Shown piece by piece: positions 30,001 to 39,000 of a stretch of DNA of 64,000 nucleotides; positions within the stretch are counted from its first letter, which is position 1, and every line of letters starts with the position of its first letter. The position numbers are program-made. Origin of the DNA: an uncultured Spirochaetota bacterium (lineage in GTDB: Bacteria > Spirochaetota > Spirochaetia > SZUA-6 > Fen-1364); assembly GCA_963820525.1 (NCBI GenBank), contig CAWGAA010000001.1, positions 1,216,001 to 1,280,000 on the forward strand, given 5' to 3'.

Positions 30001-33000
30001 CCGTTCGCGTTAAGGTTTCCGTCACAGTGGCATCCGGCAAGATCACGCGTTTCACGATCTTGAGGCATTTTCCCAGCGATCATGGCTTCAGCTCGATGCC
30101 GTGTCTGGTGCTACTTTCTCAAGCAAAGTGATCCTCAAGGCAGGAGAAAACGCTCTCGAATCCGCCAGGTAAAAACGATATCACGCTCCGCAGACTCTCT
30201 CGAGGGTCGCGGGGGATGCCCTTCTCTCCCTATTGGATGTCCTTGCGTTTCGCCTCGTATTCCTCCTTGCTGATTTCGCCCCTGGCATAACGCTTTTGTA
30301 GAATCTCCAGGGCGGAATCATCTCTCTCCGGCCGGTGACCCTGCCGGACGAGAGAGCGGACAAGAAACACAACTCCGACGATAATTGCGATCCACAGACC
30401 GCCCATCATCGCGGGCCCGATCAGCCAAAACGGGGCTCCATAGCCCCCATGCATCCATCCCCACAACATGTCGAACTCCTCCAGGCTTTCATGCCCCATT
30501 GAAAAAGTAACGATATTCCCGACGCAAGAGCACGTTCCATTAGACTCTTTTTTGCCCACAACTGGTGCATGCGGAGCTTTTACCTGCCGCGTCCGGAGAG
30601 AAGCTTCTGTCCCTTTCACTTCTTTCTTACAGGAAATTGATGGTTCTTGCTCGCGCGGCGGCGCCAGTTCAGGATAAACAGGTGCCGTCGACCAAGCGCG
30701 AAGCGAAGGGGGACACGCGATCGACGCGCTTTTCCCTTCGCACAGTTCATCAACGGGAGCCGTACGTGAGAGTGATCACCAGAGCCGAGTGTTCTCGGGC
30801 GCCCGGTGGCGCGGACAGCTCGATCCAGAACAAGCCGCGGCAGGAGATCCTTGACAAACCCTTATGAGAGTGGTTTAAGAAAAGCAGCAGATCATGAAGT
30901 CAATCGAGAATAGAAAGCTCATAAAGAAGGTCGTTTGGGCTTTTTTCATTCTCGTGCCGGCCGCGGCCGCAGCCGCGCAATCGAATGACGATGGACAAAC
31001 ACTCAGAGGGAAGACCAGGGACGCCATCCTGTTGATGACAAATCTGGATTTTGCCGCAGCAGATCGAGCAGGCTCACTGTGAATGCAAGCATGATCGTTG
31101 AGGTAATAGAATCATGAGTGAAATCCACGTTCAGCAAATTCGGGCACACCTGACAAGTTCCTTTCAAGGACTCATCGATGTTGCAGATTGCGTCGGAGAG
31201 CAAACTGAGGCGCGGGAGACACGCTTCTTGACTCGCGCGTTGGCTGCCTTCTCTTTAGTGCACGTGGCTGATATCGAACCGCCCATAGCTGCCACATATG
31301 TCACGGACGGTGGCCGAGACAACGGCGTGGACGCCCTCTACTACGACAATGTAGAAAAGATACTCTACATCGTTCAAGCCAAATGGGATCACGATGGTCG
31401 TGGTAGTCTCCAACGCGGAGAGGTGCAGAAGTTTCTAACGGGCGTCAAGGATCTGGTCAATGCCCGGTTTGACCGCTTCAACCCAAAGGTACGGGCCAAG
31501 GAAGCCGACGTTCGCGCTGAGCTCGAATCCGCTCAAACTCGCTTCGTCTTGGTAGCCGCATATACTGATCAGGAAGCACTAGCTGCTGAGCCTCAACGGG
31601 ATTTCGATGACTTCGTGAAGGAGATGAACGATCCGACAGACGTTCTCCAGTTAAGAATTCTCCATCAGGGAACGCTTCACAGCGCGATCTCGCGTGGAGC
31701 ACGCGGGGCACCGATTCATCTAGAAGTCGTCCTCCAGAATTGGGGTCAAGTGCGTGAGCCTTATCGAGCTTACTACGGTCAGGTCGCTGTCGCAGACGTC
31801 GCGGGATGGTGGGAATCCCACCATCCACGTCTCTTTGCACCTAATCTACGGATGTTCCTTGGGATGACCGATGTGAACCAGAGCCTCCTCGAAACTCTAA
31901 GAAACGATCCAGAGAACTTCTGGTATTTTAACAACGGTATAACTGCTCTCTGCGGGAATATCCAGAAGAAGCCGGTAGGTGGCAGTTCGCGAGACACAGG
32001 GGTCTTTGAACCGACGTATCGATCGTTAACGGTGCGCAGACGGTTGGTTCAATCGCTGCAGCTTATCGGACACACCCGGAGCAGGCCACCCGTGCGACAG
32101 TCTTCGTAAGATTCATTTCGCTCGAACAAGTGCCACCTGGCTTCTCTACCGAAGTCACGAGAGCGACGAATACGCAGAACCGGATCGAGCGACGAGATTT
32201 TGTTTCTCTTGATACAGAGCAGGAGCGTCTTCGTACCGAACTTCAATTGGATGGAGTCGATTATGTCTATAAATCGGGCGAAAAAATTCCTCAACCAGAT
32301 GTAGGTTTCGATCTCGCCGAAGCCACGGTAGCTTTGGCCTGTTCGTCGCCTGACGTATCGTTCGCAGTTCAGGCGAAACGCGAGATCGGCAAGTTGTGGG
32401 AAGACATTTCACGCGCACCTTATCGCGCCCTATTCAACCCAACAGTCACGGGTCGTAAAGTGTGGCTCCTAGTTACACTACTGAGAGCTATCGAACAGCA
32501 ACTGGCGGTTGAACGGGCCAGCAGGATGCGGCAACGATACGCCTTACCCGGCGCATACGAGAACTGACACAACTTCGAGAGGCGAAGAAGCGCACGGTAC
32601 TGAATATTCTCGACGATTTGATCCGTGCTAACTCATAGAAACATCGGTTTTGACGCTCCGGGCTTCCCTCGCCCCCCTTGCCGCCTCCCCCCTCCCCAGG
32701 CCCACCCCCTCCGCTTACCCCCCATCTATGGTATCCTTTGGTCGTCTGGGAGGGGATGGCTCAAAAGGGGGGCTTCGGTCGCGGTACGCTCCTCCCTCGC
32801 GGGCATCCTTGCCCGTTCACTCGTCGCTACCGCGAACCCCCTCCGCTGCAAGGGCTGTTTGGGCGCTGACGGGCTTCCGAGCGTCATATGCGGTTATTCA
32901 TGGCCAATCTCCAATAGTACCGCCCGGAGGGGGTCAGCCGGCATGCCTTTGAGCGCATCGCAGCATCATACATATGCTGTGCATCGCAAGGCACGACGAG

Positions 33001-36000: not shown

Positions 36001-39000
36001 GCCATAAGCGAAGCCGAGTTCGAACACAACCTCGGGTCTCATCCCTGTGCAATCGCCTACGACAAGGCTCGAGGAACCAATCCGACGTCGAATCTCCTCG
36101 GCCCAATCCTCGGTTCCAACCGGCACCCACCCATTTTGCACTTTCACTGTCGCAAGGCGTGAATGCACCGAAAGTTCTTGTTCCAATGCCACACTAAATG
36201 CCTTGCTCTCTTCGGAATGCATCCTGTATGCGATGAAAACGCTTGGAACTGGCGATGGACCTCCACGCACTCTCCTGAAATCTTGTTCCCGTATCTTGAG
36301 AGGTTCTAAGCGTTCGGCATCAGCATACGACCACCTCGGATCTCCCGGCTGCCACATCAACAACGGCGGTACTTCGAGTAGTGTTGGGCAGTCGCCTGGT
36401 AGCCAAATTCGCCCATTAGGTATGCACAAAGCAGCTGATCGGAGAGCCGCCTCAATAAATAAGAATAGACGTGTCGGCTCGGGAATCAGGAGCGGCTCGT
36501 TCTCCGGTAAGATATTCAAAGTCACGGGACCGCGCACCTGACCGACCTTTTTAATGACCTCCTTTCGAAGCCACGAGATCGCCTCTCCGTAATCTTGATG
36601 GTGTGGTCGGAGCTTCGTCTTAACAGCCATAAAGTATAGTTCCCTGAGATCCACTAACGCTTCGATCAAATTCCCATCGATATTATCTTCTCGTGAAGGT
36701 GCCACTCGCGCAATGACTTCTAGGGCCAAGCGAATGGAGTCTCGAGATAGTGCGATCACCGCATCAAGCCGGTCTCTTCCGATTCGCTTCAGGAGCTCCT
36801 CTCCCACTTGAGCTGCCAGAGCGTCACTAACAAAGTCCGCCCATTCCTTCGTAAGCGGACTACGCCCAAGGTTGTACACGTCGTAGTGATCTCCCGGAGC
36901 GCTACTCTCGTCTAGACGTGTAACAATTCCACTGCCATGACCTGGTCTCGTTGCTACCAAAGCGGTATAGCCCGGCGACTGATCCATCAACTGCAGTACT
37001 GGGACTAGTGCCAACGGCGATACTAGATCAGCCCTATCCAGTAGCAATAATAACGACCCCTCCGCTCGCAATGATGCCTCTGCAGCTTCACGTCCAAACT
37101 CGACAAGCGGTCGCGTCATCGGAACTGATTCGAACACTGGCAGACTTGCCCGGGATACGCGAATTTTCGCTTCCCACAACCAGTCTCTGAGACTTCGAGG
37201 CATTCTACCCAATAGCGTACGTGGGATGCACTCCGCGACTGCATCTCGATTAACGCGTACCCGCTTTCGCAGCAGTCTACTCGCGATCGAAAGCGACAAG
37301 AGCGCCGATGCCTTGTTCCCGACGAAGTCGGAGCGTACACCGGACGCCTGACGAACGAGTGGTCCGAGAGCATCTTGACGTGCGAGGCTCGAAAGTTCGG
37401 TCGCCAGTGACAGATGAAGCGCTACGCCATCATGAATGGCTTTCTGGTAGCGAAGAAGCGTTGTCTTCCCAACTCCCTTGGACCCTGCAGATGAGCGCAC
37501 TTCTTGAAAACGACCCGGGTAACTCCGGCGGTCGCTGGAATATCCTTTCCACATCGTCGTCAGGTATTTTTTCCCCGTCAGTCCAAAGAGTTAATTGCCT
37601 GGATCCCATATCAAATGCCTTACCGCTACGTGAACTCGCGCTGCAATTTTCATCGCCGCCGGGCAGCTAACTTATCATTATAGCTGAAATACGGACTATA
37701 GGGAACTTGGAGCTAAACGAACTACAGGGTACCCCTTTATATATTGATAGGTGAGAAGCGAAGCCCGAAAAATGCATCTCTGTCGCCCCGTCAACCACCG
37801 CGCCTGTACTTGAGAAAGCTTCAAGCTGACCCCCCGCTACCAGCAGCGTAGGGCTCGCGGTAGCGACAAGCGAGCGGGCAAGGATGTCCGCGAGCGAGGA
37901 GCGTACCGCGATCGAAGCCCCCCTTTTGAGCCACCCCCTCCCAGACGACCACAGGATACCATAGCCGGGGGGGTAAGCGGAGGGGAGGGCCTGGGAGGGG
38001 GAGGCGGCAAGGGGGGCGAGGGAAGCCCGAAGCGTCAAGCCGATTCGAGCGGTCCCTCCGAGTATTCTGTAAGAGTGTTGCCACAGTCCGACGCAAAGTC
38101 ATCCACTTGTTAGTTTCCCTTTAATTATGGAGCGCAGCTTACTCTTCCAACCACTTGTGTGTAGCACTCTCTCGAAAGACTCACCGTACTTGCCCGAAAG
38201 GAGGTCAATGCGGCTCTTCTTGCTGAGCTCTTCCCATTCTTCAAACATAACGTAGACTGCATTGCCATATTCTATGTTCTCAAAAACAACAAGATCGTCT
38301 CGCATGAGTGCTCCGAAGTAGCGCCGGAATCCACTGGTTCCGAAAACTAGCTTCTGAGGCTCTAGGGTCATGAAGAAAAGGGGGATATTTACTTCGCGGC
38401 ACCTGAAGTGGTATCCTGACGCGTGGCTAATATTAGCTGTTTTGTTCCGCGCGCCGGAATAGACTACCCGAGGAACATTACCGAGTTCCATCAGTTATTT
38501 CCTGATGAGAATAGTTGCCGGCGCTACCTTCAAAACGTTAGATGGAGGGATGGCTTTGTTTGCCATGCATGCGGCAGAAACGGTGATCCTTGGCACGCCA
38601 TGCGCGACGTTTTGTTATGTCCGTACTGTCGCTCTAAAACAAGATTGACAGCAGGAACCGTTTTCGAGGGTACTCGCAAGCCTCTAAAGATGTGGTTTCT
38701 TGCGATGTGGGAGCTGACCAGCCAGAAGTATGGAGCCAACGCGCTTGGACTTCAGCGCGATCTCGGCCTGAGAAGCTACACAACCGCCTGGGCGTGGCTT
38801 CACAAGCTCCGGCGAGCGATGGTACGTCCAGGTCGGGATCGACTTCACGGTCATGTGGAAGTCGATGAGAGCTACATTGGAGGAGAAGAATCCAACGTCA
38901 AAGGCCGCCAGACGACCAAAAAGGCCATCGTTGCAATCGCGGTTGAACTTAACGATGGAAGAATGGGGCGTATACGCCTACGGCACGTAGCTGATATTAC

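Follow-up and report, generated by a model that had tools for sequence, protein, structure and literature searches.

In the window, a stretch of 64,000 nucleotides from an uncultured Spirochaetota bacterium, two inverted non-coding arms enclose a four-gene ATPase/TIR-CARF-TIR-caspase operon. Such arms are the two halves of the hairpin-rich non-coding junction of a primase-helicase/ParA/XRE/twin tyrosine recombinase/Rhs element, and defence blocks are probably swapped between places by this element's own recombinase pair.

Results

An inverted arm pair encloses a four-gene operon

The arms and the surrounding genes are arranged as follows.

31114..32567, + strand: AIPR-family gene, frameshifted, its 3' end cut where the XRE remnant starts
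32513..32638, + strand: 3' remnant (~38 codons) of the element's repressor gene (XRE/RstR-like), which stops 14 bp short of GACGC
32650-32849, + strand: left arm, ~200 bp, a junction half-site followed by two long hairpins
~32671-32774 and ~32778-32838: the two hairpins of the left arm
32884..33849, - strand: cargo gene 4, 321 aa, caspase-like peptidase C14
33867..34256, - strand: cargo gene 3, 129 aa, ThsB-type TIR
34325..35389, - strand: cargo gene 2, 354 aa, CARF6-like (E 7e-12)
35389..37554, - strand: cargo gene 1, 721 aa, with a TIR-like region and an N-terminal P-loop region (AAA matches in homologues)
37843-38038, - strand: right arm, inverted copy of the left arm
38099..42433, - strand: right outer segment, with a split ORF, a ParB-like gene and DUF2130
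38379-39422: IS1595, splitting an ORF of the right outer segment
40141-41226: ParB-like gene of the right outer segment
41189-42433: DUF2130 of the right outer segment
42560..43360, + strand: cobB/Sir2 gene at the island edge

The two arms are identical at 180 of 201 columns (E 3e-68 in a search against the genome), and apart from them the longest inverted pair in the window measures 45 nt. The inverted pair that the initial annotation had described around the CARF/TIR/caspase operon is therefore real; the arm length had been given as ~185 bp and is corrected here to ~200 bp. No Rfam family reached its gathering score between positions 30000 and 47000 (four sub-threshold matches only), as had been reported for the repeat. 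Contigs of sequencing run X1 span the right junction (37934-38622) without a difference, and since X1 is perhaps the source sample, this agreement speaks only against local misassembly. Among the low-depth contigs of four sequencing runs, no joint skipping or inverting the cassette was found.

Only four arm copies are present in this genome. Single copies had been placed after Rhs toxin-immunity pairs at C1:1362720, C2:473690 and C3:209057, and all three places do follow ORFs with an Rhs core-end motif. The sharp GACGC start is missing from the copies on C1 and C2; the C3 copy, separated from its Rhs pair by an insertion, contains no detectable arm and only the longer downstream part.

Compared with named anti-phage systems, the cargo gives component matches only (CARF6, ThsB TIR, caspase and TIR effector), and its profile has no match among PDB sequences or viral contigs. 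All four genes occur together again, in a different order, at locus L250. The XRE remnant (E 1.1e-4 in a six-frame search of the genome, 97,886 segments) is all that is left of the element in the window. Beside it, the AIPR gene has a homologue (84% aa) that likewise lies outside an arm start, at L141, and the 5' part of cobB/Sir2 is found again as fragments in many arm-bearing loci. The right flank of the window was found in none of the 24 family genomes.

Arm pairs occur around unrelated cargo in related genomes

The repeat is present in 10 of the 24 family genomes, the same count as obtained earlier; elsewhere in the order, one genome has it out of 36 searched. A class-wide search with the mini unit matched 14 of 401 genomes, with strong matches only in families f1 and f6. 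Neither viral contigs (arm pattern) nor plasmids and phages (arm DNA) gave a match. Occurrences of the 19-base start pattern in non-spirochaete genomes were attributed to chance, as none matched the arm model among the matches listed.

All the pairs previously reported were recovered: in G018 one of 4,515 bp, around a type ISP/IIG gene; in G021 one of 3,953 bp, around PDC-S14, and separately the 604-bp mini unit; and in G015 one of 7,405 bp, which encloses RadC, type III RM and a copy of IS630. Orientation is strictly head-to-head in all 12 pairs tabulated; locus L128 also holds a 6.3-kb tail-to-tail segment and a 140-bp foldback derivative. Defence genes lie in five of nine distinct gene-bearing pairs, many more lie on the inner side of single arms, and some are found outside arms. 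Three of the nine pairs have no PADLOC match and one has a lone helicase only. The cassettes are thus defence-rich, as the initial annotation proposed, but not exclusively defence cargo. In the literature covered, which excludes most subscription papers, we found no account of this repeat or of arm-bounded defence cassettes.

Both sides of the arm starts recombine

The evidence for swapping comes mostly from metagenome contigs. Metagenome loci L108 and L123 have in common a 2,454-bp cassette, 99.3% identical, whose limits are the arm starts and whose flanks differ. Conversely, flank family U1 occurs with five inner families at five sites. The proposal that cassettes are interchangeable is borne out by these two cases (the flank/cargo comparison leaves out L045-L092, duplicates of earlier loci, and L105). 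The outer segments also behave as modules. Between L107 and L138, identity is 99.99% for 7,070 bp as far as an arm start, beyond which the two diverge. The arms of L100 and L123 are identical with a flank switch at the arm start, and the flanks of 94 arm starts can be grouped into 61 families.

Within the arm, linkage was followed at 51 sites, after removal of divergent and short arms. Positions 136-195 track the cargo, with 0-3% mismatch in seven same-cargo pairs against a background of 16-33%, and positions 1-105 lean to the flank rather than to the cargo. Switch points are scattered between about positions 30 and 140, and flank and cargo are common to L110 and L137 although the arm interior differs. 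RecA or gene conversion would explain this without a site-specific enzyme.

Insertion of the unit as a block into an empty target, as first envisaged, does not agree with these data, since flanks pair combinatorially and neither a target duplication nor an empty site was seen. The best flanking repeat measures 0-4 bp in 12 pairs, no better than in 132 mismatched pairs, and no empty site was found among all fetched loci; the lack of both a duplication and an empty site had been noted before. No circle, and no cassette inverted between the same two flanks, was found in the loci, family genomes and run contigs compared. The absence of duplication and the combinatorial flanks make a non-autonomous composite transposon, mobilised in trans by a DDE or HUH transposase in the manner of TIME-COMP/IMU elements or TIRtrons, an improbable explanation. 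Its attraction lies in the inverted 200-bp ends around unrelated cargo and in the two hairpins; moreover, the accessible parts of the sources describe IMU-bounded structures that likewise lack direct repeats (PMC13367494) and long TIRs that flank some HUH transposases (PMC3733652). Nevertheless, no Y1_Tnp match was obtained among 255 neighbouring ORFs, none of the five Y1_Tnp copies in this genome is near one of its four arm places, and transposases inside pairs or beside arms are only of assorted families. No intact cognate transposase is enclosed by an arm pair among the annotated loci.

The two arm hairpins covary, 17 of 37 pairs being changed on both sides, a level reached in 0 of 500 shuffles; single-sequence folding is only modestly better than that of shuffled sequences (z -1.6 and -2.4). 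This covariation fits RNA as well as DNA, and together with the predominance of metagenome contigs it could be taken to mean that the arms are a structured RNA or regulatory repeat, paired incidentally and shuffled by misassembly through repeats. We consider this very improbable. Arms open to assembler confusion have exact shared stretches of only 28-84 bp (10 triplets tested), which appear too short for an assembler misjoin, and genes adjoining arms point toward the arm in 28 cases and away in 24 (rough gene calls). Both the strict head-to-head pairing and the lack of an Rfam match also speak against it.

The arms derive from a primase-helicase/twin recombinase/Rhs element

The element encodes an XRE repressor, ParA, a CHC2 primase-helicase, the tyrosine recombinases YR1 and YR2, an Rhs toxin and its immunity protein. 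In its intact form, the Rhs immunity gene and the XRE gene are separated by a 0.6-kb unit that consists of an arm, ~200 bp of other sequence and an inverted arm. The inner tails of the cassettes fade out of this mini unit, and the inner boundary is variable. The arms thus trace to the junction of this element, and the free-standing transposase-less format first proposed needs revision.

Among 60 metagenome loci (59 with an arm), which were retrieved by the arm pattern and are in many cases redundant, 7 contain the primase and 19 contain at least one gene of the element. The order XRE, CHC2-toprim-helicase, tyrosine recombinase, with toxin-immunity genes downstream, is present beside arms at L128, L130 and other loci. 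In 10 of 11 XRE matches an arm start lies 37-1,696 bp downstream in the same orientation; at the eleventh (L248) it lies ~5.4 kb downstream. This genome has a second XRE match, 5 kb from the C1 single copy.

YR1 and YR2 both keep the R, HxxR, H and Y motifs. The best NCBIfam match of YR2 is PRK01287, and on TIGR02249 the two proteins reach 112-119 bits against a cut-off of 265. Candidates for a cognate recombinase, which the initial annotation lacked, are now supplied by the parent element in the form of these two proteins. The pair is absent from this genome; in a quick, unfinished tree neither grouped with any of nine recombinases of G000. None of 25 family genomes yielded the primase. Single-sequence primase scans of genomes and viruses gave no match, and an alignment-based search did; the closest primases (P0001-P0017) are 74-97% identical.

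In loci collected from the primase side, relatives are arrayed in tandem, and inverted dif-like pairs occupy the corresponding junction; the recombinases of these relatives are only ~33% identical to YR1. The arm model gave a single weak match there (E 3e-4), and in L173 a weak arm-like match lies between the primase and YR1. In L197, from Acidobacteriota, an unrelated inverted pair (203 bp, 85%) surrounds a Dcm methylase beside the same element type and is cut from the junction seen in L193. It is the only comparable pair around cargo in the 19 loci of this sample.

A candidate recombination site at the arm start

The two junctions of the window are:

32640..32661, + strand: left junction, with ATCGG as flank and GACGC as arm start, shifted by one base from the usual register
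38027..38048, - strand: right junction, TCGAATCG-GCTTGA-CGCTTCGG, with 6/8 dyad matches about a 6-bp spacer

The right junction is a candidate tyrosine recombinase core site, judged from its sequence; the left one has only 1/8 dyad matches. Over all loci (GA, GB and L039-L041 excluded), flanks carry C at -6 in 53 of 65 cases and G at -4 in 54 of 65. The dyad score for 57 flank families is highest on one axis (3.56/8 versus 2.18 +/- 0.20), which supports the axis, and symmetry alone leaves the spacer length unfixed. The CG-N6-CG dyad is weak, consisting mostly of one CG, and its register was picked after inspection.

A second candidate, only loosely resembling dif, lies in the arm centre. The spread of switch points does not support a fixed crossover there as the sole point, and a promoter reading of the same region was rejected because its -10-like letters vary. 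The 1.46 Mb of arm-bearing loci contain the pattern ATAA-N6-TTAT at a single unrelated place (both strands), compared with 36 matches in the 0.79 Mb of primase-first loci. This genome encodes host xerC and xerD. One of 13 pattern matches, at C1:281790, is a canonical dif-like site close to the GC-skew maximum and suggests that the host XerC/XerD pair reads another sequence.

Discussion

We lean towards a dif-module-like array, in which the element recombinases would create new junctions in trans and cargo would be swapped by crossovers inside the arms. The outer end of the arm would be an asymmetric site, in which a 6-bp spacer separates a degenerate half on the outer side from a conserved half on the arm side, as the observed dyad suggests. 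As sites alternate in orientation, the DNA would consist of two kinds of module, arm-inside (the cassettes) and arm-outside (among them the primase/recombinase backbone), an observed arrangement that may be analogous to C and D dif modules. YR1/YR2, provided by an intact element, would rejoin modules and form new junctions at relaxed targets that resemble WTCGG. The exchange of cargo seen between loci could then proceed through crossovers in the first 140 bp of the arms, either by homologous recombination or by repeated site-specific steps, and selection may retain the defence genes that are enriched in the modules. The window cassette would be a stranded remnant, since the genome has neither the primase nor YR1/YR2.

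The scattered switch points with arm conversion, the variable inner boundary, and the lack of a cognate recombinase in this genome and of a primase in the family genomes would also be expected if the recombinases no longer act on the junction-derived arms, chance rearrangement forms the cassettes and RecA alone swaps them. This is plausible but unlikely, because 61 flank families join at one same base with a WTCGG-like motif, which is beyond what RecA can produce, and because the flank switches at the arm start in L100 and L123 despite their identical arms. The flank motif and its dyad with the arm start are not explained either by a replication origin or terminus alone. In such a scheme, to which we give little credence, the arms would serve a primase-helicase replicon, and fold-back or template switching would make the pairs and capture neighbouring DNA. 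The covarying hairpins, the fading inner boundary, the foldback derivative of L128 and the arm-like match of L173 would fit, but relatives carry dif-like sites at this junction.

Among known systems, the array that we favour resembles, in its organisation, the dif modules (pdif) of Acinetobacter Rep_3/OrfX plasmids. According to the accessible part of PMC13141974, these too have inversely oriented asymmetric sites and two alternating module types, one module being the replicon backbone, with unrelated cargo shuffled and no target duplication. Inversely oriented sites and two module types are found here as well (12 head-to-head pairs, and L128 tail-to-tail). In contrast, the arms contain no canonical 28-bp dif site with XerC/XerD arms, a 200-bp double-hairpin arm stands on one side of each site, the candidate recombinases are element-encoded rather than host XerC/XerD, and the arrays are chromosomal, in Spirochaetia, with mainly anti-phage cargo.

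The parent element recalls the cHTH/Prim-Hel/SymE/Rhs neighbourhoods, which, as far as PMC1891008 was accessible, have a homologous primase-helicase, a divergent XRE gene and a PRK01287-like recombinase; in both, a toxin-immunity pair is followed by a long hairpin-rich non-coding junction. The primase-helicase is 30-36% identical to plasmid-borne copies, and an 11.3-kb circular record (NZ_CP072857.1) carries HTH, primase, PRK01287-type XerC, SymE, nuclease and immunity genes. The arm element differs in having two recombinases and ParA, with no SymE seen, no canonical dif-like site at the junction in this clade, and inverted junction pieces that bracket defence cassettes. The accessible text of PMC1891008 describes neither element ends nor a mechanism, and that of PMC8138268 does not mention primase or Rhs.

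Other likenesses are more limited. TIME-COMP/IMU elements, in the portion of PMC13367494 at hand, have ~200-290-bp repeats, often inverted, around unrelated cargo with no transposase inside; their Tn3-type inverted repeats come mostly with 5-bp direct repeats, whereas the arms show no duplication and derive from a tyrosine recombinase element. Hairpins are also a feature of GTAG/CGTC REPs and TIRtrons (PMC3733652, in part), and the arm end reads CGTC on one strand, but the arms are ten times the length of a REP, number only four in the genome and adjoin or flank no HUH Y1 transposase. Unlike integron cassettes, with attC in direct orientation after single genes and with IntI, the arms are inverted and enclose operons. 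Defence genes are also rapidly swapped at a fixed mobile-element place in P2 phages and P4 satellites, for which the available part of PMC13586616 describes no dedicated flanking repeat; here, arms mark both ends of the block.

To our knowledge, the routes by which defence genes enter and move between islands are largely open. In the present case a short repeat marks both ends of a moving defence block and candidate enzymes are in hand. We tentatively suggest a second, independent dif-module-like system, in which primase-helicase elements with a recombinase pair of their own, and an asymmetric site of their own that bears a 200-bp accessory arm, might assemble anti-phage modules (RM, CBASS, short Argonaute, Bil-like and unknown systems) into arrays on Spirochaetia chromosomes and rearrange them there; Acidobacteriota would have a parallel unrelated in sequence. 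The dif module system is reported as unique to Acinetobacter in the accessible part of PMC13141974; if our proposal is true, a parallel with element-encoded recombinases would widen it beyond that genus, and the widespread primase/XerC/Rhs elements would gain a first mechanism. The arms may also be used as a search tag for new defence systems, candidates being the four-gene operon of the window and the unannotated cargoes of L108, L125, L146 and L035.

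Arms in the window and in the genome

The initial annotation had proposed a pair of inverted repeats around a defence operon, and this pair proved to be real: two arms, identical at 180 of 201 alignment columns, surround a four-gene operon.

32650–32849, plus strand: left arm (180 of 201 columns identical to the right arm)
37843–38038, minus strand: right arm, an inverted copy of the left arm
38379–39422: IS1595-family element with 26-bp inverted repeats, splitting an unannotated ORF (39363–40118 and 38099–38491)
42560–43360: cobB/Sir2

The repeat was also recovered in 10 of 24 family genomes, as had been stated, as were all four other pairs listed earlier. 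GC content is 69% in the arms, 53% in the cargo and 60% in the genome. Two further arm copies (~74% identity) are found in the genome, at C1:1362718 and C2:473691, and contig C3 holds a related longer piece; all three lie downstream of an ORF with a Rhs core-end motif. The far side of the C1 copy (L252:5274-10140, corresponding to C1:1357274–1362140) carries an XRE match, a methylase, an unknown gene and a HerA-like ATPase, and next to the C2 and C3 copies lie an Avs-like ATPase and a restriction-modification (RM) pair of type II.

Fragments of the 5′ end of cobB/Sir2, frequently several to a locus, are found in the fetched loci L028, L033, L038, L039, L100, L108, L123, L124, L127, L128, L141, L145 and L150, and in this genome at C1:1302426 and C1:1309125. 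They mostly stop near the QNID codons, beyond which come two further non-coding repeated ends, and mark a separate integration hotspot adjoining the arm arrays. Two non-coding or pseudogene stretches of the window, 8 kb apart (45627–46296 and 53639–54297), are 99% identical; they gave no match in Pfam, and from a motif we take them to resemble the tail of an IS91-type transposase. A canonical dif-like site at C1:281790, close to the GC-skew maximum, is a candidate for the chromosomal dif site.

Cargo of the cassettes

The window pair encloses four minus-strand genes, encoding a 721-aa protein with a TIR-like match (15 homologues besides itself), a CARF6-like protein, a ThsB-type TIR protein and a caspase. 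PADLOC defence matches were obtained in five of the nine distinct gene-bearing pairs; three others gave none (L108, L125 and L099, the last searched with three ORFs only). The L248 pair, one arm of which is a stub, carries a lone UvrD helicase. Defence genes, including type IIG, type IV and others, are also present on the inner side of single arms, and outside arm starts too (AIPR, PD-T4-3, XhoI RM, Ppl-like).

Table. Defence genes associated with arms.
Pair with PADLOC match: window operon (components only)
Pair with PADLOC match: type ISP/IIG RM
Pair with PADLOC match: RadC and type III RM
Pair with PADLOC match: PDC-S14
Pair with PADLOC match: TIR-APAZ and short Argonaute
Single arm, inner side (L110): CBASS and QueC/TGT
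Single arm, inner side (L119): CBASS and NucC
Single arm, inner side (L121): CapH/CapP and BilC/BilD-like genes
Single arm, inner side (L034): short Argonaute
Single arm, inner side (L095): Eco29kI RM

All four window cargo genes are also found together in an Acidobacteriota genome (L250), where their order differs and arms are absent, and two of them adjoin Dnd genes in L251.

Exchange of cassettes between loci

A two-motif pattern retrieved 65 stretches of metagenome contigs, representing 60 loci, and the arm was recovered by profile (alignment A1) in 59 of them. The deduplicated set comprises 94 arm starts, 61 outer-flank families and 67 inner families, counts that are not independent because many contigs resemble the same strains from sister samples. 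Strong arm matches are confined to two families of one order.

Arm-inside and arm-outside segments alternate along these loci, and segments of both types are exchanged. A stretch of 2,454 bp, from arm start to arm start, is 99.3% identical in L108 and L123. The flanks around it are unrelated on both sides, and in L100 the same cassette end adjoins a third flank. Between L107 and L138, identity is 99.99% over the 7,070 bp that lead to an arm start, beyond which the two diverge. Flank family U1 borders five different cargoes in five sites. Cassettes are thus interchangeable, as had been claimed, and their exchange between loci is supported by direct sequence evidence. Since confusable arms in ten tested triplets share exact stretches of 28–84 bp, assembly misjoins are an unlikely source of the apparent swaps; an explanation of the system as an RNA or an artefact is hardly credible.

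Flanks pair combinatorially (U1-U0, U1-U2, U2-U8, U0-U13), so that no single empty target exists, and no empty site was found across the fetched loci and family genomes. Target duplications did not exceed chance in 12 pairs, and a composite driven by a transposase appears very doubtful. TIME-COMP/IMU elements, as described in PMC13367494, are similar in outline, but their duplications are absent from arm pairs.

In sequencing run X6, one contig (depth 3.4; short side of 52 letters) links window positions 30540 and 42606 and thereby omits the whole island; its source may be a relative. Near-identical regions with arm, integrase and toxin-antitoxin genes, present in the genomes of two species (L040, G021:C30; L041, G015:C18), point to recent transfer or binning overlap.

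Origin of the arms

Nineteen metagenome loci carry one or more genes of an element comprising a primase, ParA, an RstR-like XRE gene and two tandem tyrosine recombinases (YR1 and YR2), and in seven the 905-aa CHC2/toprim primase, helicase-like in its C-terminal part, is present. The cHTH/Prim-Hel/Rhs neighbourhoods described in PMC1891008 correspond to this parent element. For 10 of 11 XRE matches (two share a flank), the next arm start lies 37–1,696 bp downstream and faces the XRE 3′ end. When a profile of ten arm-associated XREs was searched against 97,886 six-frame segments of the genome, two segments matched its C-terminal part: one is 5 kb away from the single copy on C1, the other (window 32513–32638) ends 14 bp before the left arm, in LDDLIRANS, as does the XRE of L132. 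The 0.6-kb mini unit (arm, about 200 bp, inverted arm) follows the Rhs-immunity pair in L031 and precedes XRE-ParA-primase in L132, and inner tails of cassettes fade from its middle at variable points. These positions and tails identify the arms as the two halves of the parent element's junction.

YR2 3′ fragments (L110:10452, L123:2414, L128:8649, L131:74 and L141:4821) share their starting codon (HTFRH motif), directly after a short palindrome containing TATGCCG, presumably the binding motif of RIT elements; they are possibly scars of another element targeting this recombinase gene.

The primase belongs to a large family (1,067 of 7,999 scored proteins reach E≤1e-20), with plasmid-borne copies in Ralstonia, Enterobacter and Leptospira; an 11.3-kb circular record from Lonsdalea holds XRE, primase, XerC, SymE and toxin-immunity genes. 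In the 62 genome loci that the primase alignment retrieved, XRE-ParA-primase-YR-YR-toxin-immunity units are arranged in tandem arrays. The sequence of their junctions is unlike that of the arm, with a single weak match, and in L155-L159 the junction includes inverted dif-like pairs. Of 19 further loci, one, L197 (Thermoanaerobaculia), has an inverted pair of 203 bp (85%) on the XRE side of the primase element, with a 352-aa gene and a Dcm methylase between its copies; the 203-bp piece lies within a 1.28-kb junction that L193 repeats between its tandem units. The inverted-pair architecture thus recurs in another sequence, in a locus retrieved independently of the arm pattern, but in a single case. 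Oceanispirochaeta primase elements (L160:7060-7130, L164, L165) carry TCATAAC...GTTATGA 3′ of immunity genes, a form which we take to be attC-like.

Arm anatomy and a possible mechanism

The outer end of the arm is sharp, and the flanks have a motif in common: of 65, 53 carry C at −6, 54 carry G at −4 and 43 carry T at −1. Flank and arm start display inverted symmetry about a single axis (3.56 of 8 matches vs 2.18 ± 0.20), consistent with CCGAAKCG-GNKTGA-CGCTTCGG, two elements with a 6-bp spacer, and resting mostly on the inner CG; the left junction of the window is one base off the dyad register. Core sites of tyrosine recombinases have the form of two elements around a spacer, and a two-gene recombinase pair suits an asymmetric site; YR1 and YR2 are candidate recombinases for the arm junctions.

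Two hairpins follow the junction. Changes on both sides affect 17 of 37 predicted pairs, and pairing holds in 95.8% of cells; none of 500 shuffles is as high, and slid controls give 47–66%. The set comprised 28 related sequences, and relatedness and palindrome correction can inflate the result. The apex of the first hairpin loosely resembles dif-like sites of relatives and is a second candidate site. Replication fold-back as the general explanation strikes us as quite improbable. In the arm at L126:200-394 the left strand of the first hairpin is partly replaced by the exact complement of the right strand, which points to template switching inside this hairpin.

The system resembles the Acinetobacter dif modules described in PMC13141974 in its way of working, but arm loci fail the dif sequence test, and the arm system is therefore not a member of the dif module system. 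No published description of the arm repeat or of arm-bounded defence cassettes was found in a literature search covering few subscription papers and no supplements.

Arm positions 136–195 move with the cargo and positions 1–105 lean to the flank, and the switch points are scattered (non-independent pairs: 15 with the same flank, 7 with the same cargo). Swapping by RecA only is an unlikely account of the exchanges. We lean slightly towards a mechanism where YR1 and YR2, acting in trans on relaxed targets, would build and rebuild junctions at arm starts, homologous crossovers within arms would add further swaps, and the primase/recombinase core would be a backbone module. The circular form would consist of core plus mini unit.

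The primase was found in none of 25 family genomes. This genome has 12 Phage_integrase matches, the best being its own XerC (44%) and XerD (41%), and in a quick tree of nine of these recombinases, none clusters with YR1 or YR2. The window cassette is therefore stranded.
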